A stretch of 57,041 nucleotides of DNA from Chiloscyllium plagiosum (taxonomy: Eukaryota). Each line of letters starts with the position of its first letter. Positions within the stretch are counted from its first letter, which is position 1. Where the stretch lies: assembly GCF_004010195.1 (NCBI RefSeq), contig NC_057719.1, positions 3,486,679-3,543,719 of the forward strand. The letters are read 5' to 3'. The position numbers and the translations under genes are program-made. This document shows positions 4,831-53,569 of the stretch, in pieces. A model generated the notes under the pieces. The model worked only from the letters and a program-made list of their open reading frames with translations, made no database searches and had not been told where the DNA came from.

Positions 4831-5028
4831 GGGAACCAGCCATCACCCAGACTGCATCTTGAAAGTGATGGTGAATGTGTGCATAAGAATGAAATACTTG
4901 TTTTAAACAGCAAACCAAAACCAATAAATGCATTTATTCTTTCCTCAGCTGCGGTCACCTGACTGAGAGAGCAGTTTTACTGAAGAAAGGAGCCTGGTGT
5001 TGAGTTGGCTGGGAGAAACGGGTAAGGA

Positions 5029-6391
5029 ATGGCGGAGGGAGAGAGTGGAATGGCCAAGGGAAGGACTCGGAGGTTGTGCAAGAGGAAGCCGCCACCCAGA
5101 GCATCTTCAGTTGATGATGGATCCCATTCTTCGCCCCAGTTGTCGGATGTTGAATCCTCCTCCTCCAAATCCTATGTCATCGAGTGGCTTTGTGCCCACC
5201 CATATCCTTCAACTGCCCTCACGTTCCCTTCTCCTGCTGAAGACCCCCCTTCGTTTCATGACATCTACCACCACAACCTGGAGAAGGTTGCATCCAGCAA
5301 CTCGTCACGGAGCTCGTTCGTGGTCAGCAGGCGGAGGCCGAATTCTGGGGCGGACATTTTCTGCCACACCAGCACACCCGGGCTGGAGATGGAGGAGGTG
5401 CCAACCTGCTGGCAAGCGCACACGGGGGGTGAATCTGCCCGACCTTGGAATCTGGCTCAACCGGTCAGTGCCAAGGCCCCCGCAGGGCTGGAGAGTCCCG
5501 GTACCGGCCTTCCCAATGGGCTCAATAACTACGCCCAAACTATTCGCTACTGCAACTGCAAACAGTCGGGGGGCTTTAAACACGGGAGGAGAAAAGACTC
5601 ACCTCTGGCTGGCCATCCAACTGAGATGTTGACCAACAGGCCAGAGAGAAAGGAAAACAAGATCGGTTCTTGTGAAATTCCTGGTGACGGGGGGCATTTA
5701 TCCCCAGGGGACGCCATGAAACCTGAGCCCAAAACCGCAAAAAGAACCCTCCCAGAGGCTGCTGGGACCTCTGTCCCCGAGGCCATTGTGACCTCTGACC
5801 CCGAGGAGAGCCAGTTTGCCAAGGGTGACCCGTGGCCGACGGACCCAGGACAGGCCAGACGAGGGGCGGCTGGACCGAAAATCAGCTCCACTCACCACAA
5901 GAAGACGTCCGGGCCGGATCTGCAGTTGAAGACACTGGGGATCACTGTGTCCGTGGGGGAGTGGAGGAACGAGGCGTCAGTCACAGAGTCCGCACAGCGT
6001 GCCTCCAGGCCTGGTGTGGCGCTAGGCCGAGCCGAGAACTCACCTCACGCTGCCGCTCAGTCTGCCTCACGGCCTGCGGGAAGCCCACCGAAGGCAACTC
6101 ACACAAAGCGTCAGGAAACTCAGCTCACCTTTAACCTCACAGCTGGGAAGGGTCTGTGTAGGAAAGGCGATGACCAGTGCAGGAGGACTGACCCACTGCC
6201 CAACGCCCAGGCGAAAATGCCGGCCTGTTCAGAAAGCTCAGGCTCTGACTCAGTGGAGGCAAGTCCCAGGTGCAGTCCTGAAGCCGGGACTTCCTCTCAG
6301 CTCCCCAGAGTCTCAGAAAAGGTCACCACGTGTCAAAGTTCACCACGGGTTCCGGAAGAACACCTGGGGCTGGGTGAAGTTTCAGGATCAG
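5029..6391 (+). CDS. First coding exon of an uncharacterised tandem-SAM-domain protein; large S/P/G/A-rich, probably disordered N-terminus (454 codons + 1 nt)
   Basis: Longest non-repeat ORF (5029..6474). Acceptor ttattctttcctcag|4949, an in-frame upstream stop (TGA 4960-4962), ATG in strong context (G at -3, G at +4), and donor CAG|GTATGT after 6391 (phase 1) that matches the next exon's phase. Confidence 0.75.
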
Positions 6392-6551
6392 GTATGTGTA
6401 CGGGGAAACACTCAGCACTAATACCATACTCGGGCCGAACGCAACATAACCAGGCGGGTGATGGAACGAAGTGAGGGTTTAACACGTCTCGCTTAAAACT
6501 TGCTCTGGCAGATTGATGGCCAAATGGCAAGTGAGCTGTCCTCCTCCATCC

Positions 6552-6737
6552 ATGATGTGGAGGAGCCGGTGTTGGACTGGGGTGGACAAAGTCAAAAATC
6601 ACGCAACACCAGGTTATAATCCAACAGGAAATCACAAGCGTTCGGAGCCTCCAACCTTCAAGGGGCAACACTCCGAAAGCTTATGTTTTCAAATAAACCT
6701 GTTGGACTATAACTTGGTGTGTGTGATCTTTGACCTT
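6552..6737. mobile_element. Short fold-back PLE terminus (family B)
   Basis: CACCAGGTTATAATCCAACAGG ... CCTGTTGGACTATAACTTGGTG inverted pair. Confidence 0.7.
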
Positions 6738-6975
6738 CTGCAACAGCCAATGAGCTGTGTGCAGTGATTCTAATGTCCAGCAGTATAGCCAGACCCTTAG
6801 AGAGCAGTGAAAGGGAACTTGGTAACTGTACTTTGGGGAATTGTACGTACGTTTATAAAAACATTAATTTTCGGGGCATACGGGAATAAGTGGGCCTTGG
6901 TTTCCAGCCCCAACGACATGCGAAACAAACCATCCGTTAAAATCATCACCAATGTTTCATTTGCTTGCTGTGCAG

Positions 6976-7058
6976 GTGGTGAGGGTCAGGATATCGGACA
7001 GGGAAACTCCGAGAGTCAGACACACAAGCCCAGGCTCAGCACATCAGAAACAGAGAAG
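6976..7058 (+). CDS. Coding exon, 83 nt, phase 1 to 0 (linker of module A: GGEGQDIGQGNSESQTHKPRLSTSETEK)
   Basis: Acceptor ttgcttgctgtgcag|, donor AAG|GTAACC. Keeps frame between 6391 and 9497. Same length and phases as 13609-13691. Confidence 0.7.
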
Positions 7059-8224
7059 GTAACCGAATGGGGAAGGCAGCTGTGGAGAGACAGGGAGAGG
7101 GTGGCGTTGCACTGGATGGGAAATCTCAAACTGCCTGAGGTGATGATTTGGGGGAAATTTTCTTTTGTACTGTCATGTGGATCCGAAACAGACGATTGGA
7201 TGGTGTGGCCCAAACTGAGATTAGTCCAACCTCCTTCCAATGCTTCCACACCATCCAGTCTTTTATATAATTCCATGCTGAGGGCTGCAATGGATTAACC
7301 TCCAATGCCTTTGGGTTTTCGGTTAGTCTGGGGATCAAGGGTTACGGGGAGAAGTCAGCAGAATGTGGTTGAGAAACACATCAGCCACGATCGAATGGTG
7401 CAGCAGATTCGATGGGCCGAATGTTTCCCTAATACTGCTATCTTATGGTCTTTACAAACAGTGTATCCTTGATCAGAACAATGTGCACCATCTTGAAAAG
7501 CTGCCTAATTCTATCTGAGTGCCACCTCTCCACTTTGCTCCATCTCAGCTCATCTCCTGCTGAACCCCTCACACACACACCATCTTGACTGGTTCAGGAT
7601 TTGACCTTCCCATCCCAGACTGCCGGCTAGTTTTCCGTCTTCCCCCCTCCATACACTTCAGGTCATGCCAAACCTCGGCTGACCATGTGCTAGCTTACAC
7701 CATTGGCCCAGGACCCTAGCCCATACGGTCTCGCATGAAGCTATAGATCCTTTACAGCAGAGAAACAGGCCCTTCCACCCATCAAATTTATAATCAAGTA
7801 AAAGCTCGATTGTAAAACTCTGATATTTATCTTCGAATGGTACTGCTGCCCTCCATACCTGGGTTATTACCCACAATCCCACTGGCCTCGGAGATATCTG
7901 TGCTGAACTAATTCTGATTGCTTGATTGTTCTCAGTTTTAATCAAGAACATGCCTTCAGCTGTCTGGGCCCTGGTTCTGGCTGATTGCCCTTTATCTTTT
8001 CAGAAGCTTCTGAGGACCCGCATGCAGCTCTCTCATTATCACCTTTTTGTGTGTCAGCCTCTCATTTTGTTTTGTATGAAGTGCTGGTGCAGGTTTCTCA
8101 GTGCTTGGTCTTTCATGCACTTGTTTGTTCCCGCAGTAAGAAAAGCACATTCCCTGCAGCTAACAGCTCCCGTCTCAACCCGGGTTGCTTTCCGTCAACA
8201 GTCGTGAAGGGTGAGCTCAGTTAG

Positions 8225-8388
8225 TGAGCCTTTCTGCACCCCAGAGGCTCCCAACCTCATTCCTGATGAAGGGCTCCGGCCTGAAGCGTCGATTCTCCTG
8301 CTCCTCGGATGCTGCCTGATCTGCTGCGCTTTTCCAGCACCACACTATCAACTCTGATCTCCAACATCTGCAGTCCTCACTGTCTCCT
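8225..8388 (+). mobile_element. PLE 3' terminus (family A), single arm, hammerhead core mutated (GAAA to GAAG)
   Basis: CTGATGAAGGGC..GCCTGAAGCGTC followed by GATGCTGCCTGA..CTGCAGTCCTCAC. Confidence 0.75.
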
Positions 8389-8604
8389 AGTGCTGGGTTA
8401 TCCAGGCAGGACCTCTCCAGGACTGGCCACACGTGTGACAGTAACCCGGTGTCTCCTGAGGCTATGATTTGCTGATCAAGGTCACATGTGCCGCAGAACT
8501 GCTCGTAACTCATGTCAACAGACTGAGATTTGTAGCACAGTTAGGAGTGTCCTTTAACCACTGTCACACAGGAAAGGTCTTGAAGCTGTTAATTTTTATT
8601 TTGA

Positions 8605-9210
8605 TTCACTCCTGGGACGTGGGTGTCGCTGGCTGGGCCCAGTATTTACTGCCCGTCCCTAGTTGCCCCTTGAGAAGGTGGGGGTGAGCTGCCTTCTTGA
8701 ACCGCTGCAGTCCACGTGCTGTGGGTTGACCCACAACACCCTGAGGGAGGGAATTCCAGGATTTTAACCCAGTGGCACTGAAGGAACGGTGATATATCTC
8801 CAAGTCGGGATGGTGAGTGGCTTGGAGGGGAACTTGCAGGGGGTGGTGTTCTCATGTACCTGCTGCCCTTGTCCTTCTAGATGGAATGGTCATGGGTTTG
8901 AAAGGTGCTGTCTGAGGATCTTTGGTGAGTTTCTGCAGTACATCTGCAGTGCTACTGAGCGTCGGTGGTGGAGGGAGTGGATATTTGTGGATGTGGTGCC
9001 AATCAAGTGGCTGCTTTATCCTGGATGGTGTCAAGCTTCTTGAGTGTTGTTGGAGCAGGGCAAGTGGGGAGTATTCCATCACACTCCTGACTTGTGCCTT
9101 GGAGATGGCTTTGGGGAGTCAGGAGATGTGTTACTCACAACAGGATTCTGATCCTTTGACCTACTCTTGCAGCTATATTATTCACGTTCATTAGTCCAGT
9201 GCAGTTTTCG
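8605..9210 (-). mobile_element. 3' part of a CR1/L2-superclade LINE (tRNA-headed family)
   Basis: ORFs 8606..8803 and 8852..9082 (MEYSPLA...; SWNSLP...GLQRFKKAAH). Homologous to 42020-43260. Confidence 0.8.
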
Positions 9211-9496
9211 AAACATGTGAATAACCTTATGCCTCTGTCATCTTTGCTATTTGAAATTCTTGGAGCCACAGTTTCCCACGTCAATCAGTTAATGCTGTAA
9301 TAATATGTTCCACCAGGAGGGGGTGTCACAATATCTCCACTTTGGAATTTCCATCTTCTCAGCAAGAAGAGAAATCTCTCTACTTCCTCGCTGTTTGATA
9401 GCTCAGCCCATCCTGAGGTTGTGAAACGTAGATACAAATGATTCCTTTTGTTAATCCGACTGTATGCCACTCTGATGTTGTAAACCCCTCTCCCAG

Positions 9497-9605
9497 GTCA
9501 CCAATGTCTCAGGAGCACCCGTGTCTGTGGAGAAGATGGCGGCTGAGGAAGTCCGTCACTGGCTGATCAACTCTGGCTTCCACTCATGCCTTCAGCGAGT
9601 GAAAG
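9497..9605 (+). CDS. Coding exon, 109 nt, phase 0 to 1: N-half of SAM-like domain 1 (VTNVSGAPVSVEKMAAEEVRHWLINSGFHSCLQRVK)
   Basis: Acceptor cccctctcccag|, donor AAG|GTGAGA. The 'EEV..WL...GF' pattern is typical of SAM helix 1. Paralogous to 19904-20012. Confidence 0.85.
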
Positions 9606-10884
9606 GTGAGAGGCGTGCTCACTGTGAGAACACCTTACCTCACCGCAAGGTTTCGGTAAATCTGAGCTCGCTTAGTACACATCGAAATGGATAGGTCAAT
9701 GCTCTTCACCTCGCTGTCTCCCCACCTCCCCTCACCCCCTCCTCTCCTCCCCTGAACCCCCTCCGCTCCTTCCCTCCTCCCCTCACTCCCCCTCCCCTCC
9801 TCCCCTGAACACCCTCCCTTCCTTCCCTCCTTCCCTCCTCCCATCACTCCCCCTCCCCCTCCCCTGNNNNNNNNNNNNNNNNNNNNNNNNNNNNNNNNNN
9901 NNNNNNNNNNNNNNNNNNNNNNNNNNNNNNNNNNNNNNNNNNNNNNNNNNNNNNNNNNNNNNNNNNNNNNNNNNNNNNNNNNNNNNNNNNNNNNNNNNNN
10001 NNNNNNNNNNNNNNNNNNNNNNNNNNNNNNNNNNNNNNNNNNNNNNNNNNNNNNNNNNNNNNNNNNNNNNNNNNNNNNNNNNNNNNNNNNNNNNNNNNNN
10101 NNNNNNNNNNNNNNNNNNNNNNNNNNNNNNNNNNNNNNNNNNNNNNNNNNNNNNNNNNNNNNNNNNNNNNNNNNNNNNNNNNNNNNNNNNNNNNNNNNNN
10201 NNNNNNNNNNNNNNNNNNNNNNNNNNNNNNNNNNNNNNNNNNNNNNNNNNNNNNNNNCCCTCGTCCCTCCTCAGCCACTCCCCCTCTCCACTCCTTGCCA
10301 TCATCCCATCCCTGCCCCATCCCATCCGCTCCTTATCGCTTCGTCCTTCAGACATCCTAATGTTGGAAGTCTGCTGTTGACTGCCTTGGTCATTTTCTTC
10401 TATAGTGTAGATGTTACCCTTCCCCCCACACCCCCACTTCCATTCTGGAAAAGTCTCACCCAACCACAGCCTCCGAGATCACTCTGAAGGATGTCTGGAT
10501 CACTATGAGAGATCCACTGGGGTCTGTGAGACCCCAAAGATCCAAGTGAATCATTCTGACCCTTTAGATAGGACTACTTCCGTTGAGAGAGCCGATGAGT
10601 CATCCCGCCTATCCATTGGCTCTCCATATCTGGGAAAGTAGCTAGGATGGTAATTGGCTCACTTTGGCATTGAGCGATGGCAGGGCTCAGAAATCGGAGA
10701 GTCACCTTCCCCACCCCGACACAGTCCTGTGTGTCACCAGGGCTAAAGCCAGAAGATTGCATCTCGTCTTCCGGCATCTTCTTCAGCTAACTCCTTCACT
10801 GGCCGACAATCTTCCTCAGCAAATGGTATCAGGAAATGCTGGGATGTGGTATGTGTAATGTTGATCTGTCTCCTCTCTCCTTAG

Positions 10885-11034
10885 AGCTGGGGATTAGCAG
10901 TCAGCACTTAGCCAGTGCTGACCCAGACCTGTTTGACCAGCTGAAGTTACAAGATGCAGAGGACAGAGTGCGTTTGCTGGTTGCTCTCTACCAACAACTC
11001 AGTCCATCCGCCCCGACTGTCAAGCAGCTGCTGG
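10885..11034 (+). CDS. Coding exon, 150 nt, phase 1 to 1: C-half of SAM-like domain 1 (ELGISSQHLASADPDLFDQLKLQDAEDRVRLLVALYQQLSPSAPTVKQLL)
   Basis: Acceptor tctcctctctccttag|, donor TGG|GTAAGG. 28/50 aa identical to exon 22576-22725 (hand count). Confidence 0.88.
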
Positions 11035-11274
11035 GTAAGGAATAGCGAAAGGTCAGGCTCTGTAAAAACATGGAACCCTTGTGAAGCTGGGCCACAGGTT
11101 GTGAGTTCAAGTCCAACTATGGCGAGTTTTTGGCATTTAATTGAGTAAGGGATTATTATCAATTTTGCTCAAATCCAGAAAAAGTGACTAGTTATGGTCA
11201 AAATTCAACCAGGTGATTAATTCCTTTCAAAGAAGAAAATATACTACTCTTACCTAACCTGGGATATGCTTCAT

Positions 11275-12410
11275 AGAATATACACCCTTCGGCCTACAAT
11301 GCTTTGTCGAGCATGACGCCAAACTAAACTAATCCCTTCTGTCTGTCAATATCCCTCCATCCCTTGCATATTCATGTGCTAATCTAACATATTTGCCTCC
11401 ACCACCCCCCTGGCAGCACGTTCCAGACTCCTCCCACTCTCTGTGTAAAATACTTGCCCCTCACATCTCCTTTGAACTTTCTCCCTCATCTTAAATGCAC
11501 GTCCTCTAGTTTTAGACATTTCGACTCTGGGAAAAGGATTCTAACCATCAACCCTATCTAGGCCTCTCTTAATTTTAATTTTATAAACTTCTATCAGCTT
11601 CTGCCACTCAAGACAGAAAACATCCTAGTTTGTCCAGCCTCTCCTTATAGCTCATATCCTCTAATAGACAACCATAGAATCCTACACATGGAGACATGTC
11701 TGTCCACACTAACCCTGTTTCCCTGCACATGGGCCATACCCTTCTAATCCTTTCCTATCCATGTATTTGTTCAAATGCCTTTTAAATGTTGTTAATGTAC
11801 CCACCTCAACCACTTCCACTGGCAGCTCATTCCATATGCGTACCACCCTCTGTGTAAAAGAGTTGCCCCATAGATTCCCTTTTATTCTTTCCCCTCTAAC
11901 CTTAAACTGATGCCCTCTAGTCCTCGATTCCCCAACCCTGGGAAAAAGACTGAGTGCATTCACCCCACCCATGCCTCATGATCTTATACATTCCTTATAA
12001 GATACCCCACAGTCTCCTACGCTCTCAAGAAAAAAAGTCCTAGCTTTGTCCAACCTCTCCCTATAACTCAGATCATTGAGTCCCGGCAACATCCTTATAA
12101 ATTTATTCTGTAATCTTTCCAGTTTAATAACATCCTGCCTGTAGCAAGGTGACCAAAACTGAACACAATACTCCAAGTATGGCCTCACCAATGTCCTGTA
12201 TAACTGCAACATAATGTCCCCAACTTCTATACTCAGTGCCCTGACTGATGAAGGCTAGTTTGCCAAAAGCTGCCTTCACTGCCCTGTCGACCTGTGACTC
12301 CACTGTCAGAGACCCGTGCACCTGAACTTCAAGTTCCCTCTGTTCCGGTACACTCCTTAAGGCCCTACCATTCACCATGAAACTCCTACCTTGATTTGCA
12401 TCCCGGTAAA
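11275..12410 (-). mobile_element. Two adjacent CR1 3' fragments (about 11275-11665 and 11675-12410)
   Basis: LYRTLVRPYLEYCVQFWSP; RTRGH...FTQRVVRIWNELP. Confidence 0.9.
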
Positions 12411-13087
12411 TCTCTCCCACTTCACTCCATATTAATTTTTGTTCAGATATAAGTCTGATAAAATACAGGAATAGACATCTTGAATATTGAATGGGTTTGT
12501 TGTGTGAGCACTGCATTGTAATGTCAGGCCGGGTATGACTCAGTGCAAAACATTTTTATTGACTGCCCCCCCCTAGTGTAAGTTCAAAAATATTCACACA
12601 AAGAAAATAAACAATAACACTCTCACTCAGTATAGAATTGTCATCTTCAGCAATTCCTTTCCTCTATCTTTCCATGAAGTTAAATATAAGATTATTATCG
12701 AGATCTCGTCATGCCTATGATGTGGAGGTGCATTGCACCTGACAAAAAGGTTATGTTCCGAAAGCTTTTGATTTCAAATAAACCTGTTGGACTATAACCT
12801 GGTGCCGTGTGACTTCTGACTCAGTCATGTCTCGTAATTCCTTCAAAGAAATTGCTTTTCAGCTTCCTGACTGAGCTGACAACAATTGCCCTCCTCATTT
12901 CTGATGTAAAACTATAACGGGATGATGTTTAGGTTTCCAAATGCAAGTAACGAGAGTTCAGGGAGGTTTTCTAAAGAGTGACTGAGGGCTCTCTTATCAG
13001 GAAAGTTGATGACTCGTTAATTCTTCAGTCACTGTAAACAAAAAAATAATCTCCATCCTGACAAAGCTTTATCGTGCTAAATGACAG

Positions 13088-13266
13088 GGAGAAAGTGAAT
13101 ACTGCAGATGCTGGAGATCAGAGACAAAGAGTGCAGTGCTGGGCAAACACAGCAGGTCAGGCAGTGTCCGAGGAACAGCAGAGTCAACATTTCGTGCATA
13201 AGCTTGTCATTATTGCTGATGCTGCCTGACTGGCTGTGCTTTTCCAGCATCACACTTTTGGACTCT
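13088..13266. mobile_element. Degenerate fold-back PLE terminus (family A)
   Basis: GGAGAAAGTGA..ACTGCAGATGCTGGAG arm followed by inverted GATGCTGCCTGAC..TTTTCCAGCA. Another half arm lies at about 13445-13540. Confidence 0.7.
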
Positions 13267-13608
13267 TGCTAAATGACAACCAAACCGTAAATAAGGCTTA
13301 GTACCAACCTTTCATGAACATCCAGGTTCATATCTTCAAACAGGAAAAACCAACAGATAAGAATCATAGCACCGAATGAGATTAAATGAATGATAATTGG
13401 TTTCTGCACAAATCCGGCGGGGTTGTGTGGGGGGTGGCGAGGGGTGCCTTTGCCCGAAACGTCACTTTTTCCTGCTCCTTGGATGCTGCCTGACCTGCTG
13501 TGCTTTTCCAGCACCACTCTAATCTTGACCTTCTCCTGTGTGATAGGCTTACAGTTATTCCTATCCTTACCTCTCCATCTGACTGAAATTGGCCATGTTT
13601 CCAAGCAG

Positions 13609-13691
13609 ATGACCAGAATAAGGTGCAAGAACAGCAGACCGAGGAGCTCTGGACCACGAAGGAGAGTTGCAACCCCTCTGGATCCGACAAG
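13609..13691 (+). CDS. Coding exon, 83 nt, phase 1 to 0 (linker of module B: DDQNKVQEQQTEELWTTKESCNPSGSDK)
   Basis: Acceptor gtttccaagcag|, donor AAG|GTGATT. Supplies the phase 1 to 0 change needed between 11034 and 19904. Same length as 6976-7058. Confidence 0.65.
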
Positions 13692-13836
13692 GTGATTGGT
13701 GCACTGGGAGTCAATATTATTGTGTATTCTAATGGAAAAGCTACATTCAGCTTTAAGGACCATTTGTCTTCAAAAATACAAACAAAAACATAAAAATATA
13801 ACTCACAAACTTGGATGTGGACTAGAGTTCAGGACA

Positions 13837-14015
13837 GGAGAAAGTGAGGACTGCAGATGCTGGAGATCAGAGCCGAGAGTGTGGTGCTGGGAAAGCACAG
13901 CAGGTCAGGCAGCATCTGAGGAGCAGGAGGATCGACGTTTCGGGCATAAGCTCTTCATCATGCCCTGCTGCTGGGATGCTGCCTGACCTGCTGTGCTTTT
14001 CCAGCAACACACTCT
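13837..14015. mobile_element. Fold-back PLE terminus (family A) with target-site duplication
   Basis: Inverted arms flanked by TAGAGTTCA(G/A)GACA direct repeats. Confidence 0.8.
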
Positions 14016-14454
14016 AGAGTTCAAGACAGAATTGTAAAACACAGAAAAACAGGAGGCCATTCGGCCCTTCAACATGATCATGGCTCATCATCCAACTCAA
14101 TCCCCTGTTCCCAGTCTCTCCCCATTCCCTTTGATCCCTTTATCCCTCAGGACAATATTGAACTCCTTCTTGATAACATTCAATGTTTTGGCTTCAATGG
14201 TTTTCTGTGCCAGAGAATTCCACAGGCTCAGCATTCCCTGGTCATCGGGATTTCCTTCCAAACAGATGCTGACAGCCTGTTAATCCTGAGATTTTGTTCT
14301 ATTCTTTTTAAATTATGTTTGGAAGCATCAGAACATTTACCTCAGAGGGATATTATTCACTCCCTTGCCAGTTTGACATTACCACCTCTTTTGGGCAATG
14401 ATTTTATATTGTCCTCACCTCACCTCCCAGCTGTACAATTTTACAATGGAATAC

Positions 14455-15075
14455 AAAACAATACAGCACAGGAACAGGCCCATCAGCTCACCAAACCTGC
14501 CCTGTATCCTAATCTTTGTTTAGATCATCTGCTTATTGCCCATGTATGGTTTCCAACCCTCTGTTCAACTCCCATGTGTCTATCAAGGTACTCCTTAAAC
14601 ACTGCTAACGTACCTGCTTCCACCACCCCCACTGACAGTGCATTCCAGACACCCACCATCCTTTGTGTGAAAAACTCTCCTCGTACCTCTCCCCCAAACC
14701 TCACCCCCTCTCACCTTTAACCTGTGCCCTCTTGTAGTTGACCGTTCCACCCTGGGAAAAAGCCTCAGCTTATCCACCCTATCTATGCCTCTCATTATTT
14801 TGTAGGCCTCTATCAGGTCTCCCCCTCAGCCTCTATCTTTCCAGTAAAAACAGTCCGAGTTTATCCAACCTCTCCTCGTAACTGAAACCCTCCAGAGCAG
14901 GCATCATCCTGCTAAACCTGCTGTGCACTCTCTCCAAAGCATCCATGTCCTTCTGATAGTGTGGTGACCAGAACTGCTGGCAATATTCCAAATGGGGCCG
15001 AACTAAAGTTTTGCACAGCTGTAACATGACTTGCCGATGAAGGAGAGTGTGCTGTCTGCCTTCTTGCTCATCACC
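14455..15075 (-). mobile_element. CR1 3' fragment
   Basis: ORFs 14595..14795 and 14833..15078 (LVRPHLEYCQQFWSP). Confidence 0.9.
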
Positions 15076-15130
15076 CACTAATTAACCAGGACTCTCCTTG
15101 TGTGTTGTACTTATTCTAACTTCGATCATT

Positions 15131-15290
15131 ACTTGCGAGAAAGCCCTGTCTCTATCTGCAGTTCCCAACACAAACCGGATGGGGGGGGTGGGCACTGCTG
15201 GTTAGAATGTGCTGGGGGGACCTCTCATTGGGCGCACTCCCTGATTGGATAGCAAGCCAGACCATTCGTTGGCTGCCCGCTGCAGAATGG
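15131..15290 (+). promoter_or_regulatory. Candidate internal promoter (housekeeping-type motif cluster)
   Basis: Inverted CCAAT boxes (ATTGG 15227-15231, CTGATTGG 15241-15248), G-rich GGGGTGGGC (15185-15193), CTGCAGTTCCCA (15156-15167, ZNF143/Staf-like), TTGCGAGA (15133-15140) and YY1-like AATGGCGG overlapping the ATG at 15287. Confidence 0.45.
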
Positions 15291-15304
15291 CGGTAGATAT
15301 AGTT
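15287..15304 (+). CDS. Candidate alternative first coding mini-exon (MAVDIV), phase 0
   Basis: AGA-ATG-G strong Kozak context, 6 codons, then donor GTT|GTAAGG. In frame with the phase-0 exon at 19904. Confidence 0.45.
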
Positions 15305-15956
15305 GTAAGGCGTCTGTGAAAATATGACTCCAAACTACCCTCCCTAGGCATAAATGAAAGTCACCCCTAATTATTGCCTTACCCTTCTTACAGACTATTC
15401 TAATTGGGTCATTTTGCCCTGGGGGTGAGGTGGGGGCTTAATGTTAAAATCCCTGGCCTAGCAACTCCACGCAGTCTCAGACTGTGAGCTCAAATCCCAA
15501 TATGGCAGCAGCTGGTTACATTTTGAACGCATTTAAATCTAGAATTAAATCTGGCTCAATCAGTATTTAAAAAAAAACCCATCTTGTTTGTTGAAGTCTG
15601 TTCTGGACAGAAAGCTGCTGCTCTTACCTGGGCTGGCCCACATGTAACTTCCAACAGAGTAATGTGATTTATTCTTCATCACCTTCAGATCAAAGATGAA
15701 CGATGGCCCCATCAGAGTTACCCACATTGATTGAAAGAATAAATTCAATGTACCTGCCTTTTAAAAAATCTGCCTTTTGCTATTTGTGTGAGGTTAGATG
15801 TTTAAGAATCACTGAAAAGTTATAGCTATCAGAACAGATGAACATAAAAACAGAGAGGACTGCAGAAACTCAGCAGCTCCTCACTCTCTGCAAAAATCCA
15901 ATTCATCCGATAAATGCTAATTCCTCATGTATCCCATTAACAGCTCAAAAAAGAAA

Positions 15957-16393
15957 TGATTTGGAGATGTCGGTGTTGGACTGGGGTGGACAAAGTTAAA
16001 AATAACACACCACATTATAGTCCAACAGGTTTAATTGGAAGCACTAGCTTTCAGAGCGCTGCTCCTTCATCAGGTGGGAGAAAGTGAGGACTGCAGATGC
16101 TGGAGACCAGGGTTGAAAAATGCGGTGCTGGAAAAACACAGCAGGCCAGGCAGCATCCGAGGAGCAGGAGAATCGACGTTTCCTGAAGAAGGGCTTATGC
16201 CCGTAACGTCGATTCTCCTGCTCCTCGGATGCTGCCTGGCCTGCTGTGTTTTTCCAGCACCACATTTTTCAACTCTGGTCTCCAGCATCTGCAGTCCTCA
16301 CTTTCTCCCACCTGATGAAGGAGCAGCGCTCTGAAAGCTAGTGCTTCCAATTAAACCTGTTGGACTATAACCTGGTGTTGTGTGATTTTTTAA
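15957..16393. mobile_element. Composite nested palindrome: PLE family B arms enclosing PLE family A arms; 13-bp TSD
   Basis: CTCAAAAAAGAAA at 15944-15956 and 16394-16406. Inner family A block 16077-16308. Confidence 0.85.
16309..16343 (+). ncRNA. Minimal type-I hammerhead ribozyme motif (family B); mirror copy on - strand at about 16042-16076
   Basis: CAC-CUGAUGA-A-GGAGC-agc-GCUCU-GAAAGCUA-GUG: helix I CAC/GUG, helix II, palindromic AGCU in place of helix III. Confidence 0.65.
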
Positions 16394-16779
16394 CTCAAAA
16401 AAGAAAGGTGTACTTGGTGAAAACCTTTTCACTTGTCAGGGAGACTAAAGCAAGGGATCACTATTATCACCAACAGAGCAACAGGGACCTCAGAAGAAGG
16501 TGTCTTTGTACCGAAAGCATTGAGAAGGTGGAATTTGCTGCAGCAGGAGTGGCTGGTATTGTCTCACTCAAGCAGAATGCCTGAGGGAAAGTAGATCGCA
16601 GGATGTGGAATACGGAAGGAATTTAGAGGAAACACATTGGATTTTCCATGTAGCTATGATCCCAGCTGAAGCTGCCCTTTCATACAGTCAAATCCGGACT
16701 GACATCTGGCTTGATTCATTATATTTTGATTTGTTTGGTTTTAAGAAAGTGAAACATGCAATGCTGCAGATTTTGGTTT

Positions 16780-18715
16780 ATAGAGATGTACAGCACAGAA
16801 ACAGGACCTTCAGCCCAACTCGTCCATGCCAACCAGATATCTTAAATTAATCTAGTCCCATTTGCCAGCACTTGGCACATATCCCTCTAAACCCTTCCTA
16901 TTCATATACACATCCAGATGCCTTTTAAATGCTGTGATTGTTCCAGCCTCCACCACTTCCTCTGGCAGCTCATTCCAGACACGCACCACCCTCTGCGTGA
17001 AAAAGTTACCCCTCAGCTCCTTTTTCAATCTTTCCGCTCTCATCTTAAACCTAGTTCTGGATGTCCCCACCCCAGAGAAAAGATCTTGTCTACTTATCCT
17101 ATCCATGCCCCTCATAATTTTGTAAACCTCTATAAGGTCACCCCTCAGCCTCCGATGCTCCAGGGAAAACAGCCCCAGCCTGTTCAGCCTCTCCCTGTAG
17201 CTCAAATCCTCCAACCCTGGCAACGTCCTTGTAAATCTTTTCTGAGTCCATTCAAGTTTAATAACATCTGAACTTTTTTACTGTATTCGGACCTTTTTAC
17301 TTCTTTATGTTTCTAATTTATTCCTATCATCAATAATGCTGGACTAGTAATTTCTTTACTTTTCTATGCTTTTTTGTTTCCTAAGAATTTGATCTTAAGG
17401 ATCTGTACCAAGGTACCTTTATACCTAAGACAACACAGTAATGCAGTGACTGTAAACCTGTCACTGTACTCATTTGAGTACATGTGACAATAAAACAAAT
17501 TCAATTCAATTCATCCTTCCTGTTGCAGGGAGACCAGAATTGTACACAGTATTCCAGTACAATTCTACTCCTGTACAGTGGCAACATGATGTCCCTACTT
17601 ATATACTCAATGCACTGCCCAGTGAAGACAAGCTTATCAAATGCCTTCTTCATCACCCTGTCTACCTGCAACTCCACTTTCAAGGAACTTTGCGCCTGCA
17701 CCCCTAGGTCTCTGTTTGGCAACACTCCGCGGGACAACAACATTACACAGGGCAACAAAATGCTGAGAGGCAGAGATAGGGTGAATAGTCAGAAGACTTT
17801 CCCCAAGGCCAACAACAAGAGGGCACAGGTTCAAGGTGAGAGGGGGAAGAGTTAGAGGAGAGGTGTGCGGAGAATATTTCATACAGAGGGTGGTGGGCAC
17901 TTGGGACACACTGCCAGTGGAGATGGCAGAAGCAGGCACATTAGCAACGTATCTTGATAAACACATGTGCAATAAGTAATGGACCTAAATAAGGGTTAGG
18001 AATTGGCACAGGTTTGGTGGGCCAAGGGCCTGCTCCAGTCATAAAGTCATAGAGATGTACAGCATGGAAACAGACCCTTTGGTCCAACCCGTCCATGCCG
18101 ACCAAATATCCCAACCTAATCTAGTCCCACCTACCAGCACCTGGCCCATATCCCTCCAAACCCTTCCTATTCATATACCCATCCAAATGCCTTTTAAATG
18201 TTGCAATTGTACCAGCCTTCACCACTTCCTCTGGCAGCTCATTCCATATACACACCACCTTCTGCGTGAAAAGGTTGCCCCTTAGGTCCCTTTTATATCT
18301 TTCCTCTCTCATCCTAAATCCATGCCCTCTAGTTCTGGACTCCCCCATCCCAGGGAAAAGACTTTGTCTATTTACTCTATCCATGCCTCTCATAATTTTG
18401 TAAACCTCTATAAGGTCACCCCTCAACCTTCGATGCTCCAGGGGAAACTGCCCCCGCTTCTCCCTATAGCTCAAACCCTCCAACCCTGGCAACATCCTTG
18501 TAAATCTTTTCTGAACCCTTTCAAGTTTCACAACATCTTTCCAATAGGAAGGAGACCAGAATTGCACACAATATTCCAAAAATGGCCTAACCAATGTCCT
18601 GTACAGCCGCAACATGACCTCCCAACTCCTGTACTCAATACTCTAACCAATAAAGGAAAGCAAACCAAACGCCTTCTTCACTATCCTATCTACCTGCGAC
18701 TCCACTTTCAAGGAG
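16780..18715 (-). mobile_element. Cluster of CR1 3' fragments (16780-17725 -, 17730-18040 +, 18040-18715 -) with a different LINE tail inserted at about 17270-17513
   Basis: ORFs 16852..17223, 17501..17758 and 18121..18615. The insert ends GTGACAATAAA..(ATTCA)n. Confidence 0.85.
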
Positions 18716-19181
18716 TCCTGTATTGAATTGTATATACACGGAGGTTTATTAACAAAGCAAATGAAGATAAAATAGAATAAATAAACGCACCCATCTACTT
18801 AAAACACTGATCCAAAGATTGTTAAATAAAATTATATTCTCATTAATCCCAAAACACTCAGATTATAACTTGAAAAGAAGAATGGTCTTGTTTGATGATA
18901 ACCAAAACACATCCTGCTATCCGAAGAATGCACCTTGTATAGAACCTCGAAATATCACTTATACAATACCCACACCAAAGGACCTGTCTTTAACACCTCG
19001 TTAAGTTTAAATCTTTGGGTTACAAATTATAGACTTGAAATGCTCATAGCTTTTGGCAGGAGTTATTATATACCATACCTTAAATATACTCTGTTTTAAT
19101 AAACCTCTTCACTATTTTATCTTCACACGTTTGAGACGAATATTAAATCTTTACTCTGTGTTAACCAAATTCCACTTTATA

Positions 19182-19310
19182 CTGAGGAAGGCTCACTGGA
19201 CCCGAAACGTTAACTCTGGTCTCTCTCCACAGATGCTGCCAGAGCTGCTGAGCTTTTCCAGCAATTTCTGTTTTTGTTTCTGATTTACTGCGCCTGTAGT
19301 TTTTTGGATT
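19182..19310 (+). mobile_element. PLE 3' terminus (family C) with hammerhead-like core
   Basis: CTGAGGAAGG...GACCCGAAACGTTAACT then AGATGCTGCCAGA.CTGCTGAG..TTTCCAGCA. Related copies at about 3845-3930 (-), 24370-24450, 34570-34685 (-) and 46560-46655. Confidence 0.7.
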
Positions 19311-19903
19311 TCCTCGTTCAATTAATCAAGATCACTGATCTGTACATGCATCTTCAGTGTCCAAAATTCAAAGCAAGACTGCACAAAATCTCTCTCTCTC
19401 CGAACTATCAGTGCTTCCTTTAGGCTTAAAAAAAAGTCTTCTCAAACTTCGAAACAGGAGCTTGTTCATCTTGTCATAAAACCCTCCAATTTTCATAAAA
19501 TCCATTAATTCTAAAGCTAAGCCTCAAAAACTGCTCAATAGCAAATCTCTACGGCCTGACAAATACAAATCAATTACTAATTTCAGGCTTACAGAAAATC
19601 CACAAATTATTAACTCAAAAGCCAAAAACCCAACCTTTCAATACATGATAATAAATGTATACATTAATTGACAGTTTATATTATAATGCACAGTTATTAA
19701 TTTGGATCAAATTGCTGGGTCTTTGTCGTGTAAATCTATGTAAATCATTATCATATTAAAGTGTCAAAGAATCTGGATTGTAGAAGGGGTTGAGATGCCA
19801 ATCAGGTCCAGTCTGATTCTATATTAATTAGCTTCCCTCCTTACCTCTGTGCCAGTGAAATGTTCATAGGCTTTCTGATTCTATTGCCAAATTCTTTTCA
19901 CAG

Positions 19904-20012
19904 GGAACTGACACATCAGGAGCAGGAATACCCCTGGAGAAGATGACGACCGATGAGGTTTGCAAGTGGCTGATCGAGTCTGGCTTTGAGGCCTATGTGC
20001 CACATATCCGAG
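19904..20012 (+). CDS. Coding exon, 109 nt, phase 0 to 1: N-half of SAM-like domain 2 (GTDTSGAGIPLEKMTTDEVCKWLIESGFEAYVPHIR)
   Basis: Acceptor ttcttttcacag|, donor GAG|GTAAGG. 15/36 aa identical to 9497-9605. Confidence 0.88.
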
Positions 20013-20160
20013 GTAAGGGCAGTGCGAATCTCAACCTGTGGGAACGTCCTCTCCATTCATGGAGCCCCGGAGATATTGACCTGACTGGGGCAAGCCATTT
20101 GCTGCTATCCCTGTCTGCTTCTCTGACTGTTTCAAGAGTAATCTTACCAATTATTTTCAT

Positions 20161-20411
20161 GTTAAAAATCACACAACACCAGGAAATGGTCCAACAGGTT
20201 TATCTGGAAGCACTAGCTTTCGGAGCGCTGCTCCTTCATCAGGTGGTTATGGAGAATAAGATCGTAGGACACAGAATTTAAATTAAACTACCTGATGAAG
20301 GTGCAGCGCTCCGAAAGCTAGTGCTTCCAAATAAACCTGTTGGGCTATTACCTGGTGCTGTGTGATTTTTAACTTTGTCCGTCCCAGTCCAACACCGGCT
20401 CCCCCACATCA
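20161..20411. mobile_element. Fold-back PLE terminus (family B) with hammerhead cores on both strands
   Basis: Arms about 20161-20244 and 20290-20373. The - strand 20211-20245 reads CACCTGATGAAGGAGCAGCGCTCCGAAAGCTAGTG. Confidence 0.85.
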
Positions 20412-20514
20412 CAATTGTTTTAATGATCACCTTAATCACCTGTTTCAAAAAGTAATTTGATGCAGAGTTTTCAGCATGATCCTGCCTTTCATATTTTATG
20501 GGTCTATCACACAC

Positions 20515-20651
20515 ACTAGTGTTCGGTGCAGTAGTCAGAGGGAAACGGGTCTGGGTGGGTTACTCTTTGGAGGGTCGGTGTGGACTGGGTGGGCCTGTTT
20601 CCGCTCTGTAGGGAATCTAATCTAATCTAATCTAATCTAATCTAATCTAAA
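20515..20651 (+). mobile_element. HE1-type SINE 3' fragment with (AATCT)n tail
   Basis: GGGTCTGGGTGGGTTACTCTT...GGGCCTGTTTCC, tail 20614-20651. Confidence 0.8.
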
Positions 20652-20889
20652 TGAAAGAATTGCTCACCCACTGTTTTAAGGCAACCCTCACTCACCAATT
20701 TAAATGTCATTTGACCCACCATTTTAAGGGATGCTTCACGCACCATTTTAACTCCAACTTTAAGGGTAGTCTCATTCAAAACGTTAACTGTGGCTCCTTC
20801 TGCTATTTCAAATGAAACCTTACTAATCATGTTCAGGCAAGTCTCGTCATTTATTTTAAAGGTCACGTCCATAAGGGCACGAGCCGTCA

Positions 20890-21950
20890 AGACATAGAAG
20901 CAGAGGGAGACCATTCAGCCCATCGGATCTGCTCCACCATTCAATGAGATCATAGCTGATCTGATCACCCCCAATTCCACCTTCCTGCCTTTTCTCAATA
21001 ACCCTTGATTCCCTTTCTGATTAAAAATCTATCTCTCTCAGCCTTGATTAGGCCTCAACAGCAGACTGTGGTGACAAATTCCACAGATTCACTCCATCTG
21101 AGATAAGAAATTCCTCCTCTCTCAGTCTTGCTTTGCCACTCCGAGATGATGTCCCTCTGATCCTAGACCCTTCCACATGGGGAAACCACTTTTCCCCGTC
21201 TCCCCTGTGAAGTCACCATAAGAACCTGCTATGTTTCAATAAGGTTGCCTCTCATTCTTTTAAATTCCAATGAGTACAGGCCCAACCTACTCTCTAGCTC
21301 CTCATAAGACAGTCCCTTCGTACCTGGGATCAGCCGAGTGACCCTTCTCTGCACTTCCTCCAATGCTGGTATATCTTTCCTCAGATAAGGGACCCAAAAC
21401 CATTCCCAGTATGCAAGCTGGCATCTGATTAGGGTCTTGTACAACTTTCACAAAAGCATCCTTACTTTCATTTTCCATTCCCCTTGAAATAAAGGCCAAC
21501 GTTCTATTTGGGTTCACTTGGACTGAATGTGGGTAGCAAGACATTATTCTGATAAGTCTCCAGGGAAGCAGCAGTGAATCAGCTGGGGGATACGAAGCAA
21601 TGTGTCGTGACTAATGTGGAGTTTTGGAGCGGGGTGAAGGATTGTTGCGGAGTTCCCCAGGGTCGCTCTGGGAACCTTTACTTTTTCAGGTGGATATCAA
21701 TGATCTCAATCTTGCCGTGCAGGGAACACTTTCAAAGTTTGTGAACAATGCAAAATTTGAGAGGATTGTAGACAGTGAGGGGGGGCGGTGCAGGATTTTA
21801 AAAGGACATTGACAATTTGTGGAATGGGCAGGGAGGTGGAAGGCGAAGTCATGGTGGAGAAGTATGAGGTGTCCTTTGGTACAAAGAACACAGACAGACA
21901 GTAAAATAAAGGCCACTGTTCTAAAGGGAGTGATGGAACAGAGGGATCTT
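20890..21950. mobile_element. CR1 fragments (20890-21520 -, 21530-21950 + RT core)
   Basis: ORFs 21229..21444 and 21624..21812 (PLLFQVDINDL). Confidence 0.75.
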
Positions 21951-22575
21951 TACGCTTTTGTGTTCTTATCCTTATAACTTGTTGCAACTTCTATTCTGAC
22001 CCTACAATTCAGGCCTGAAGGCAATCAAAGGAAATATTCTTCAAACTTCTCTGTTGACTAAGATAATCAAGTGACTTCCAAGAGACAGCAACAATTTCTG
22101 CCATTTATAATCTCCTATAACTTAACAGGTCCTCACACATCTGTTGTGGAATAAAGCTGAACTCACGGAGATGAGATTGATCTTCAGGAAACCACTCTGA
22201 GCAAGATCAGGGAGAAACTATCTGCTTTGATTTCTGATCGGTTATGTTCACTTTTTTTTTATTTTTCTTTTCTTTGGAAGAAAGGAAACACCAGAGTGGC
22301 CTGTGACAAGCAGTGCCCTTCACATTAAACGGCAATGCTGTGTGACATGTTCACTATTTATAAATGAATTGGCAATGGCGCAAAGAGTCTTTAGACTAAT
22401 TGGAGATAATTAGAAACAGGAGCTCTGAGAAGAGAGGGAAGTCAGATTTAAAAATCCAGACCAGTTTGGTAAATTTATCCCCACAACCCTGAATTAGAGT
22501 TTCAGTCATGTTCAAAGATGTACCATTGTGGTTTAATTGTAATCCGACTTCTAACCGTGTCTTATTTCTCTTCAG

Positions 22576-22725
22576 AGTTTGGGATTACTGGGAGACAGTT
22601 AGCAAACACTGATTCGGAATTATTCGACCAATTACAATTGCGAGATGCTGAGGACAGGGAGAAATTGCTATTTGCTCTGTACCAGGAGCTGAATCCATCA
22701 GACATGAATGTTGAAGACATATTGG
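22576..22725 (+). CDS. Coding exon, 150 nt, phase 1 to 1: C-half of SAM-like domain 2 (EFGITGRQLANTDSELFDQLQLRDAEDREKLLFALYQELNPSDMNVEDIL)
   Basis: Acceptor cttatttctcttcag|, donor TGG|GTAAGG. The 'GITG..L' motif matches the SAM 'I.G..L' signature. Confidence 0.9.
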
Positions 22726-22837
22726 GTAAGGGACGCAAAACTTTACTCAAAAGAACGTAAATACAGAGTGCTCCAATCATACAAAAAAGTGACAAAGCAT
22801 TACATCTGAGCAAGGGATTCAGTTAAAGCAGTGCAAT

Positions 22838-22980
22838 ATGTCAGCTGTGGCTAAGTGGCCAGCACTTTTATATCTGAGCGCAAAGGTCACAGGATAAAAA
22901 CCTGAACCAGAGACCCAGGCTTAGAAATCTAGGTTGCAGCATTAGTATAGGACTGAGGGAGTGCTGCACTGTCAGAGGGT
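22838..22980 (+). mobile_element. Degenerate DeuSINE/SacSINE-type head leading into the minisatellite
   Basis: TCAGCTGTGGCTAAGTGG A-box-like head...AAATCTAGG...ACTGAGGGAGTGCTGCACTGTC. Similar Deu-like relics at about 24520-24600 and 24705-24860. Confidence 0.55.
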
Positions 22981-24325
22981 CAGTGCTGAGGGAGTGCTGC
23001 ACTGTCAGAAGGTCAGTGCTGAGGGAATGCTGCACTGTCAGAAGGTCACTGCTGAGGGAGCGCTGTATTGTCAGAACTGAGTACTGACGGAGTGCCGCAC
23101 TGTTGGAGGTTAAATACTGGGGGAGCGCTGTATTGTTGGAGAATCAGTACTGAGGGAGTGCCGCACTGTTAGAGGGCCAGTGCTGAGGGAGTGCTGTACT
23201 GTCGGAGGGTCAGTGCTGAGGGAGTGCTGCACTGTCGGAGGGTCAGTGCTGAGGAAGTGCCGCACTGTCAGAGGGCGAGTACTGAGGGAGCACCGCACGG
23301 TCGCAGGGTCAGTACTGAGGGAGTGCTGCACTGTCAGAGGGTCAGTACTGAGGGAGATCTACACTGCAGACGGTCAGTCACACTGTTGGAGGGTCAGTAC
23401 TGAGGGAGTCCCGTACTGTCGGAGAGTCAATGATGAAGGAGCGCTGCGCTGTCGGAGGGTCAATACTGAGGGAGTGCTACACTGGCGGAGGGTCAGTACT
23501 GAGGGAGTGCCACACTGTCAGGGGGTCAGTACAGAAGGAGTGCTACAGTGTCGGAGAATGAGTTCTGAAGGAGTGTCAGACTCTTGGAGGGGCAGTACTG
23601 AGGGAGTGCAGGACTGTTGGAGGGTCAGTAGTGAGAGAGAGCCACACTGTCGGAGAGTCAGTGCTGAGGGAGGGCCGCACTGTTGGAGGGTGAGTACTGA
23701 GGGAGGACCACACTGTTGGAGGGTCAGTACTGAGGGAATGCTGCACTGTCGGAGGGTCAGTACTGAGGGAGGGCCATACTGTCGGAGGGTGAGTACTAAG
23801 GGAGCGCCGCATTGTCAAAGGGTCAGTCCGGAGGGAATGCCGCACTATGGAAGGGTGAGTTCTGAGGGACTGCCACACTCTCGAAGGGTCAGTGCTGAGG
23901 GAGTGCAGCACTGTTGGAGGGTCAGTACTGAGGGAGAGCAACACTCTCAGAAGGAGAGTGCTGAGGGAGTGCTACATTGTTGGACAGTCAATACTGAGGG
24001 AGAGTCGCACTGTTGGAGAGTCAATACTGGAGGCAAGCAGCAATGTTGGATGGTCAGTTCTGAGGGAGTGCCACTCTGTTCGAGGGTCAGTGCTGAGGGA
24101 GTGTCTCACTATTGCAGGTTCAGTGCTGAGGGATTGCCACACTGTTGGATGATCAGTGCTGAGGGAATGCTGCACTGTCGGATGGTCAGTGCTGAGGGAA
24201 TGCTGCACTGTCGGATGATCAGTGCTGAGGGAATGCTGCACTGTTGGATGGTCAGTGCTGAAGGAATGCTGCACTGTCGGATGGTCAGTGCTGAGGGAGT
24301 GCCGCACTGTAGGAGGGTGAATACC
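22950..24325. repeat. 33-bp minisatellite, about 41 units, consensus CAGT(A/G)CTGAGGGAGTGCTGCACTGTCGGAGGGT
   Basis: Direct inspection. The 11-aa periodicity in ORF 23180..24487 confirms the unit length. Confidence 0.95.
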
Positions 24326-24939
24326 TCATCAGTTTCCAGTCGCATTTCAATTCTAAAGAACAATCTCTCAACTCGAAATGTTAACACTGTTTCGCTCCCC
24401 GCAGATGCTTCCAGACCCACTGAGTTTTTCCAGCACTTTCTGTTTTCACGTGAAATGGATTTTCCCATGATCAATGTTCACCCCTGAACCTGCATTACAC
24501 AAAGCTGCATTCCGTTGTCTTTAGTAGGATCTTGCTGTGCCGAAAGTGGCAGCTGCATTGCCTACGTAACAGCAATAGATGGGTCATGCCAGGAATTTAT
24601 TGTTGGTTCAGTGATTGCAGATTCCCAGGAAAGCCAATTTAAAAATGTGACTCCTTTGTGCTGTGTCATGTGTAAGGCAGTCAGCAGCACCTTTGTCTGT
24701 AGCATCATCAGGGCTGGCACTTCGAGGCAGTATCGAGGGAGTGCTGCTTTGTCAGCGGGGCTGTTTTTGGAATAAGTGTATCACTGAGGCCCTGCCTCTC
24801 CTCTCTGACACCCAATAGTTTTAGTGAGAGTTGTTTCATCTGGTATCCTGATAATAATACATAGAGATGTAATAATTATCTGTCAGCCACCTCCCTAGCC
24901 ATCTGAAATGCATCTATCTCATTATGTTCACTGGGCAAG

Positions 24940-25245
24940 GAGCAGCACAGTGGCTCAGTGATTAGCGCTGCTGCCTCACAGCACCCGGAACCTGGGTTTG
25001 ATGCCACCCTTGGGTGACTGTCTGTGTGGAGTTTGCACATTATCCCTGTGTCTGTGTAGGTTTCCTCCCACAATCTAAAGATGTGCAGGTCAGGTGAATT
25101 GACCGTGCTAAATTGCCCATAGTGGTAGGTGCACTAGTCAGGGGTAAATGTAGGGGAATGAGTCTGGATAGGTTAATCTTTGGAGGGTTGGTGTGGGCTT
25201 GTTGGGCTGAAGGGCCTGTTTTCACACTGTAGGGATCCTAATCTA
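24940..25245 (+). mobile_element. HE1/V-SINE-type SINE
   Basis: Head, core and tail as in other copies. Confidence 0.9.
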
Positions 25246-25552
25246 TTATCAAATGCTTGTTTGTGGTCCTCTGATTTATGAAGTACTTACGAAGACTCAT
25301 GCTTACAAATCCAATCCTGTACAGGGGAGTGATGTTAAAGAGCCAACCTTTCCAGTCCTTACCAGCAGCTGCTTTAGATTCTCTTACGTTGTATCCCGGC
25401 GAGCGTAGAAATTGATTTATGACCAGACTCCAGAACAGAACTTGTACACACCCTGGGGACTCTCTATAAATAGCTCTGCGCCCCTATCAGCTGCTGCCTT
25501 TCCAGTATTAAATACACGATAAAAAACACAAATTGTTCTTTCTTTCTTGTAG

Positions 25553-25677
25553 GTAGTAGCAATATTGGCAATGTGTTCTCTAGTGTGGAGTTACCAATGA
25601 GCAAGTCAAACTCCAAGGCTTGGGCATCTGAAGATTTATCCAAGGAACAGCATTCATTCCAGGATAGTCCCAGGTAG
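25553..25677 (+). CDS. Probable next coding exon, phase 1 in (GSSNIGNVFSSVELPMSKSNSKAWASEDLSKEQHSFQDSPR*); ends at TAG 25675-25677 or splices at 25673
   Basis: Strong acceptor ttgttctttctttcttgtag| and open in the required phase. Possible donors CAG|GTAGAC (25674) and ACA|GTAAGG (25681, after the stop). Confidence 0.6.
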
Positions 25678-53530: not shown

Positions 53531-53569
53531 GGGGTGGCTATGTTCATATCAGCGTAATTCCTAAGTAGT

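Follow-up and report, generated by a model that had tools for sequence, protein, structure and literature searches.

A 57,041-nucleotide stretch of the bamboo shark Chiloscyllium plagiosum genome (contig NC_057719.1, positions 3,486,679 to 3,543,719; the window, numbered from its first letter) carries on its forward strand eight exons of a gene in which a three-exon cassette encoding a SAM domain is present twice in tandem. Probably, these eight exons encode the first half of an unnamed scaffold protein whose remainder, comprising a helical region, a PDZ domain and a coiled coil, would be encoded past the end of the window. An earlier note, made from the sequence of the window, had read the locus as an unrecognised gene of about 723 amino acids if it ends at a TAG at 25677, with a disordered N terminus followed by two SAM domains. 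As described below, the duplicated cassette holds up in detail, whereas the end of the gene probably does not.

A duplicated SAM cassette

The coding part of exon 1 (5029–6391) runs from an ATG at 5029 to the sole strong phase-1 donor of its frame (GTATGT, after 6391) and encodes 454 low-complexity, likely disordered residues without a Pfam match. It is preceded by a probable 5′ untranslated portion of the same exon (4949–5028), with an acceptor AG at 4947–4948 and an in-frame TAA at 5023–5025 shortly upstream of the ATG, as read from the sequence only. Exon 1 contains the short conserved motifs SYVIEWL, PPSFHDIYH and NGLNNYAQTIRYC and is 94.5% identical to its closest match, C. punctatum chiPu_0021600 (P0001), and 44% identical to Scyliorhinus canicula (P0003). 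A strong donor-like GG/GTAAGG after position 5021 (5019–5027) lies 7 nt upstream of the ATG; splicing from it could remove all of the large coding portion of exon 1, and a Narcine isoform (P0017) likewise skips the large exon.

The six cassette exons were found where the earlier note had placed them, all with AG and GT at their borders, and their products align ungapped to the basking shark (Cetorhinus) protein XP_078419518.1 (P0049). Linker exon L1 (6976–7058; 12 of 27 residues identical to Cetorhinus) is followed by exon A1 (9497–9605; 24/36), which encodes helices 1–2 of SAM copy 1, and exon B1 (10885–11034; 36/49), which encodes helices 3–5. The second set comprises linker exon L2 (13609–13691; 20/27), exon A2 (19904–20012; 32/36) with helices 1–2 of SAM copy 2, and exon B2 (22576–22725; 46/49) with helices 3–5. 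Exactly as had been claimed, the lengths of 83, 109 and 150 nt occur twice, each time with phases 1-0, 0-1 and 1-1. Exon 8 (25553–25673; 121 nt, phase 1-2) is likely internal, as it ends at a donor (CAG/GTAGAC) and orthologues continue in frame. Exon 1, the six cassette exons and 25553–25677 together make 2172 nt, or 723 amino acids plus a stop, with zero internal stops.

Comparison of the two cassettes reproduced the reported identity of 43 of 86 residues between the SAM halves, without gaps. At the DNA level, 64 of 109 nt are identical in the A exons and 95 of 150 nt in the B exons, values that none of 20,000 shuffles reached. The linkers, said to have kept their length but not their sequence, do keep their length; the second half of that statement is a slight overstatement, as 40 of 83 nt are identical against a shuffle mean of 23 (2 of 20,000 shuffles reach 40). 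Their protein identity is just 6 of 27 residues, a value reached by 494 of 20,000 shuffles. Tandem duplication of a symmetric exon block is a textbook mechanism, and the exon phases confirm that the cassette is such a block: a duplicated class 1-1 unit with flanking introns of the same phase and matching internal intron positions, as exon shuffling requires. Between copies, dN (nonsynonymous divergence) is 0.35 and dS (synonymous divergence) is about 3, the latter saturated (pS, the proportion of synonymous differences, 0.74). Intron-to-intron BLAST between the cassettes gave 30 matches, namely the two exon pairs and 28 non-colinear multi-copy matches that we read as dispersed repeats, which leaves no dateable intron homology between the cassettes. 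A third SAM copy was not seen in any of the six reading frames of the window.

Judged from sequence profiles and predicted folds, both copies are SAM domains. Pfam scores and fold predictions were obtained on orthologues, and the whole spliced window protein was scored with the family profile only, which matched copy 1 with an independent E-value (iE) of 8e-14 and copy 2 with 3e-20; window exons scored singly gave only weak matches to Pfam SAM_3. The Cetorhinus orthologue, with the same six exons, has two Pfam SAM_2 stretches (49.5 bits versus a cut-off of 20.5). The C. punctatum model scores 25.8 bits against the same gathering cut-off of 20.5, and its SAM copy 2 is identical to that of the window over 78 aligned columns. 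An AlphaFold model of the Cetorhinus protein, built on a 36-row alignment, contains two five-helix units in blocks with a predicted local distance difference test score of about 80–97. By structure matching, its SAM copy 1 resembles the SARM1 SAM with Z 12.3 and a root-mean-square deviation (rmsd) of 1.2 Å over 70 residues, and across the SAMs of SARM1, DGK-delta, CNK2 and Shank3 the Cetorhinus SAMs gave Z 11–12 and rmsd 1.2–1.9 Å. Downstream of the SAMs, the model has three long helices (309–445), a PDZ-type fold (460–535) that matches NHERF1 PDZ1 (Z 11.9, rmsd 2.0 Å over 83 residues) and a helix of ∼140 residues (546–684). The fold searches agree domain by domain for this model. Together, the SAM_2 matches, the five-helix folds and the family-profile scores support the SAM assignment that the earlier note had made from a residue pattern.

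Age and fate of the two copies

A search with exon B2 returned 7 proteins among 20 candidates, all from sharks or rays and all uncharacterised or hypothetical. Orthologues in Cetorhinus (LOC144693548), Scyliorhinus (LOC119979694), Leucoraja (LOC129700591) and C. punctatum (chiPu_0021600), together with the coelacanth Latimeria (LOC102349508), share the exon-1 motifs, the SAM cassette and exon 8 with the window, Cetorhinus having all six cassette exons. The orthologue models differ from the window in continuing past exon 8 and in having two to no complete SAM copies, Latimeria having one. Full-length named orthologues are all 'uncharacterized' or 'hypothetical', and fragments carry automatic labels such as 'kinectin-like' or 'mucin-5AC-like'. 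No well-characterised gene matches, in line with the earlier statement that no named family could be assigned; 'unrecognised' was too strong, as the six-exon cassette is already present in the NCBI model XP_078419518.1.

In a tree of 25 SAM rows, which left out the chimeric Mobula SAMs, a faulty Carcharodon copy 2, the C. punctatum rows and most paralogues, the 14 elasmobranch rows formed one clade (support 95/91), separate from the single Latimeria SAM, a paralogue clade and two amphioxus SAMs. A fuller tree of 41 rows gave a support of 93/91. Because rays retain A1 together with A2-B2, the duplication predates the split between sharks and rays, which bears out the proposal of an old internal tandem duplication. 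These data suggest a model where the phase-1-to-1 block was duplicated once, in the interval between the divergence from bony fishes and the shark–ray split. Two points weigh against so late an origin: approximately unbiased tests do not reject an older duplication (copy 2 with Latimeria, p 0.057; copy 1 with amphioxus SAM1, p 0.118), and homogenisation of the two copies may offer an alternative.

The copies have not evolved alike. Copy 2 is identical to Cetorhinus at 78 of 85 residues and copy 1 at 60 of 85, and on the end branch of the window in the 25-row tree copy 1 has a length of 0.33 versus 0.083 for copy 2. By sequence comparison, copy 2 is strongly conserved and copy 1 is relaxed; the coding sequence is conserved, in line with the purifying selection proposed earlier, but selection is unequal between the two copies. 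Copy 2 would have kept the ancestral job.

Gene models from other elasmobranchs suggest how the cassette was remodelled afterwards. Five Scyliorhinus models have B1 cut to 23 residues and one isoform is without B1, as are the Pristis and Leucoraja models. Four models from two devil-ray species (Mobula; P0004, P0014–P0016) join A1 to B2 in a chimeric SAM, four from Hemitrygon and Hypanus keep A1 alone, and four from Narcine keep A2-B2 alone. The C. punctatum model has B1 and B2 without L1, A1 and L2. Exon 1 and every A and B exon end in phase 1, so that exons lying between any two of these junctions can be lost or skipped without a frameshift; other lineages could thereby shorten, lose or fuse copies without breaking the 3′ half. 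Every lineage-specific junction would join phase 1 to phase 1, if the phases of the window hold there. What tells against these patterns is that they come from 21 gene models read as annotated, some of which are plainly faulty (P0001 without L1, A1 and L2; P0023 stopping before B2), even though the patterns recur within lineages.

Alternatively, copy 1 could be in decay and its exons skipped most of the time, which would leave the working protein with a single SAM. Its roughly fourfold faster change on the window end branch fits this, as do the shortened or missing B1 in Scyliorhinus, Pristis and Leucoraja and the lack of A1 and B1 in the Narcine models. However, A1 and B1 are fully open with canonical splice sites in the window, Cetorhinus and Carcharodon; copy 1 of the window is still matched by Carcharodon at 57 of 85 residues, close to the Cetorhinus value; dN between the copies is far below the saturated dS; and copy 1 of Cetorhinus is confidently predicted to adopt the SAM fold. 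We therefore regard a decaying copy 1 as rather doubtful and favour two retained SAMs, the first under relaxed constraint.

Where the gene ends

The TAG at 25675–25677 occupies positions +2 to +4 of a phase-2 donor (25671–25679, CAG/GTAGAC). Read-through of this donor gives an Arg and then a stop, which is the ending proposed in the earlier note. After splicing, the split codon AG+Y would instead give a Ser preceding Tyr or Cys, as in 8 of 8 aligned orthologue rows. All eight cluster representatives other than P0001 extend beyond exon 8, and so do Cetorhinus and Latimeria. Shark, ray and coelacanth orthologues continue into the helical region, the PDZ, a long coiled coil and a conserved tail, to a length of up to about 1600 amino acids; the Pristis model ends after the helical region, with the tail as a separate model. 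In C. punctatum, parts of the 3′ half are present as the consecutive models chiPu_0019831 (coiled coil) and chiPu_0019830 (last exon, tail), both on a 179,789-bp contig, while the SAM half lies on a separate contig of 31,440 bp; the chiPu_0019831 coiled coil is identical to that of S. torazame at 48 of 61 positions. These comparisons indicate that a long form of the gene continuing past exon 8 is very probable. The frame from ATG 5029 is open to TAG 25677 as described, but the stop is probably intronic and the 723-residue end probably wrong, as is the reading of the protein as a disordered N terminus plus two SAMs, to which orthologues add all four further regions. A short isoform may exist in addition to the long form.

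Several observations run counter to a long form. No exon of the 3′ half was found at 25.7–57 kb of the window by tblastn, block hidden Markov models or a scan for acceptors plus motifs (best score 11 versus 23–43 for true rows). P0001, the only Chiloscyllium model of the SAM half, stops at the identical place. Exon 8 is followed by AATAAA at 25743–25748, a candidate intronic poly(A) signal that would yield the 723-residue short form, with ATTAAA also at 25795. Together with the frame being open to the stop and a donor (GTAGAC) without a G at +5, these would fit a gene that truly ends at TAG 25677, by gene fission or through predominance of a short isoform polyadenylated at the intronic signal, and whose product might act as a SAM-only decoy. 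We consider such an ending distinctly unlikely: the stop lies where, by established splicing logic, read-through of a phase-2 donor always yields one, orthologues extend further, C. punctatum has conserved 3′ exons, and the P0001 model is faulty and comes from a contig of 31 kb. If the long form is right, the lack of a 3′ exon in the remaining 31 kb implies that the next intron exceeds 31 kb or that the exon falls within a gap of Ns.

We rejected the alternative that the TAG arose by nonsense mutation in a Tyr codon, the donor then being at 25680, because it needs three adjacent amino acid changes, whereas the 25673 donor needs none. A second donor-like GTAAGG lies at 25681–25686, 7 nt past the 25673 donor, and its use would include the TAG.

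Relation to known scaffolds, the wider family and the rest of the window

The order of SAM, helical region and PDZ is the same as in CNK/CNKSR proteins (SAM-CRIC-PDZ-PH), the top Foldseek matches; a comparable mode of action as a scaffold is likely. An N-terminal SAM followed by a PDZ is present in the orthologues, the PDZ exons lying outside the window. According to PMC11257983, CNK has a four-helix CRIC bundle between SAM and PDZ and a central PH domain. In contrast, the shark gene has two SAMs, long predicted helices as a candidate CRIC, no PH and, after the PDZ, a long coiled coil; in the Cetorhinus model the PDZ is followed by the long helix and then disorder. A divergent CNK-type RAS-MAPK scaffold with the helical region as its CRIC domain would explain why the five best Foldseek matches of the Cetorhinus model are CNK SAM-CRIC-PDZ chains (E 6e-7 to 1.6e-6). 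These matches have an rmsd of about 35 Å and a target template-modelling score of 0.24–0.27, indicating that two domains match separately; the three helices between SAM and PDZ match generic hairpins (Z about 10–11) in searches with the whole model; no PH or CRIC family was found at E ≤ 1 in the 17 proteins scanned, full-length orthologues included; and none of 3 PDB sequence matches is a CNK chain. Such an identity is very improbable: the gene is not a CNK member, having no PH domain, although by analogy its product may work like CNK.

Binding of RNA hairpins in the manner of Smaug/Vts1, one option raised earlier and a known function of the shared SAM fold (PMC9893680), is extremely improbable, as both SAMs are net acidic (−3 for copy 1, −7 for copy 2), helix 5 starts with acidic AEDRE versus SLHRK in liprin-beta, Vts1 uses Arg/Lys and Leu-Gly residues (same source; judged here without direct alignment to Vts1), and the PDZ and coiled-coil context fits protein scaffolding.

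Two further resemblances were rejected. Neurabin/spinophilin combines SAM, PDZ and coiled coil in one protein, and the nearest Atlas clusters (0.87–0.88 and 0.83) are a lead only, all matches in that search being under 0.9. In neurabin/spinophilin the order is PDZ, coiled coil and C-terminal SAM; the SAMs precede the PDZ in every orthologue with both, which is the reverse, and the PDZ_5 family gave no match. The second resemblance is to Rab11-FIP proteins: the tail of an amphioxus relative weakly matches Pfam RBD-FIP at positions 1–39 of 41 (E 0.028, 14.7 bits versus a cut-off of 23.3) and has YLD. The RBD at the C terminus of Rab11-FIPs carries a YID/YMD motif (PMC3279423), which is present in 0 of 7 jawed-vertebrate tails; RBD-FIP has no Pfam match in them, and their profile retrieved no FIP among 3 chance-level PDB matches at E ≤ 10. 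Among the listed hits of the fold searches, no CRIC or FIP structure stood as a match in its own right; either fold may nonetheless be present.

When the Mobula protein was searched against 1.84 billion representatives, nearer relatives emerged (33 matches at E ≤ 0.001; 23 of the 27 new ones named). Named matches were fragments of orthologues (sharks, rays, Callorhinchus, Latimeria), a paralogue present in chimaera, sharks, rays and ray-finned fishes, and amphioxus, with no tetrapod among them. A profile search gave 167 matches, and among the 120 listed every named one was a ray-finned fish. Absence from tetrapods is tentative at best, resting as it does on the named matches among those listed. 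The uncharacterised fish paralogue (for example Poecilia LOC107836177; also in zebrafish, gar, bowfin, paddlefish, Callorhinchus, sharks and rays) is predicted to comprise a SAM, a ubiquitin-like fold, helices and a PDZ. By profile, SAM and PDZ of the paralogue and of amphioxus LOC109464519 are colinear with the shark gene; in amphioxus the second coiled coil is matched as well (iE 3e-7), and so, though weakly, is the tail (iE 0.002, in a small protein set). The paralogue differs in having one SAM and the ubiquitin-like beta-grasp fold, and amphioxus in its Pfam RA domain (E 2.5e-17) and its two SAMs, which the best tree does not pair with the shark copies. The ubiquitin-like profile of the paralogue matched neither shark or coelacanth orthologues, nor the amphioxus RA, nor the window (best iE 0.8); by this search and the Cetorhinus model, the lineage of the window has no ubiquitin-like domain. 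The window gene is a member of an unnamed family that includes the shark gene, the fish paralogue and the amphioxus relative. The amphioxus proteins P0034/P0052 show an unusual set, SAM-SAM-RA-(RA)-coiled coil-PDZ-coiled coil-FIP-like tail, for which the present analysis turned up no named counterpart.

The domains of the protein suggest a signalling scaffold in the cytoplasm or at the cell cortex. Its coiled coil would make it a dimer, and its PDZ would hold membrane proteins by their C-terminal tails; shark orthologues have W-G-F at the position expected for the carboxylate-binding loop. The charge of the SAMs and their acidic helix-5 start, which argue against RNA binding, favour a basic partner SAM, likely bound head-to-tail by analogy with CNK and HYP, whose SAMs bind in this way (PMC11257983), and the second SAM would add optional valency. 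Against this picture stand its basis in domain content only and the predicted template-modelling score of 0.29 for the whole Cetorhinus model, in which no domain arrangement is predicted.

Elsewhere in the window, the intron downstream of B2 contains a 33-bp minisatellite of about 40 copies (22952–24323), owing to which a frame of 457 codons stays open (23114–24487); this frame has only weak sub-threshold Pfam matches, and we read it as non-coding. Many LINE-like fragments lie in the introns and at 26000–57041, with an endonuclease–reverse transcriptase at 36768–37118 (Pfam Exo_endo_phos_2), ALKBH8_N at 32384–32923 and, at 52632–53537, a presumably Penelope-like element without a Pfam match. 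A 412-bp direct repeat (96%; 54173–54575 and 54870–55281) flanks the N gap (54576–54869) and is likely a scaffolding overlap artefact. No other host genes were seen among window open reading frames of at least 100 amino acids.

Several shark and ray genomes already have an unnamed prediction of the locus, which would not surprise a specialist; in the literature covered, which left out most subscription papers, we found no mention of six locus identifiers, of SAM exon duplication in sharks or of this architecture. Within one clade, the locus documents what became of a duplicated module: retention of both copies, truncation or loss of one, fusion of the two, or no complete SAM. It also points to an unstudied SAM-PDZ-coiled-coil scaffold family with a paralogue in zebrafish, open to knock-out. 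More speculatively, and on balance unlikely, the genes may descend from a chordate scaffold family not described before (SAM, RA/ubiquitin-like, helical region, PDZ, coiled coil, FIP-like tail), which in the past would have connected GTPases of the Ras and Rab types with PDZ cargo and survives as two fish paralogues, missing from tetrapods, with the elasmobranch phase-1 cassette as a dial for two, one, chimeric or no SAM by lineage and splicing. If this were true, the cassette would offer a naturally occurring series in which to test the effect of SAM valency.

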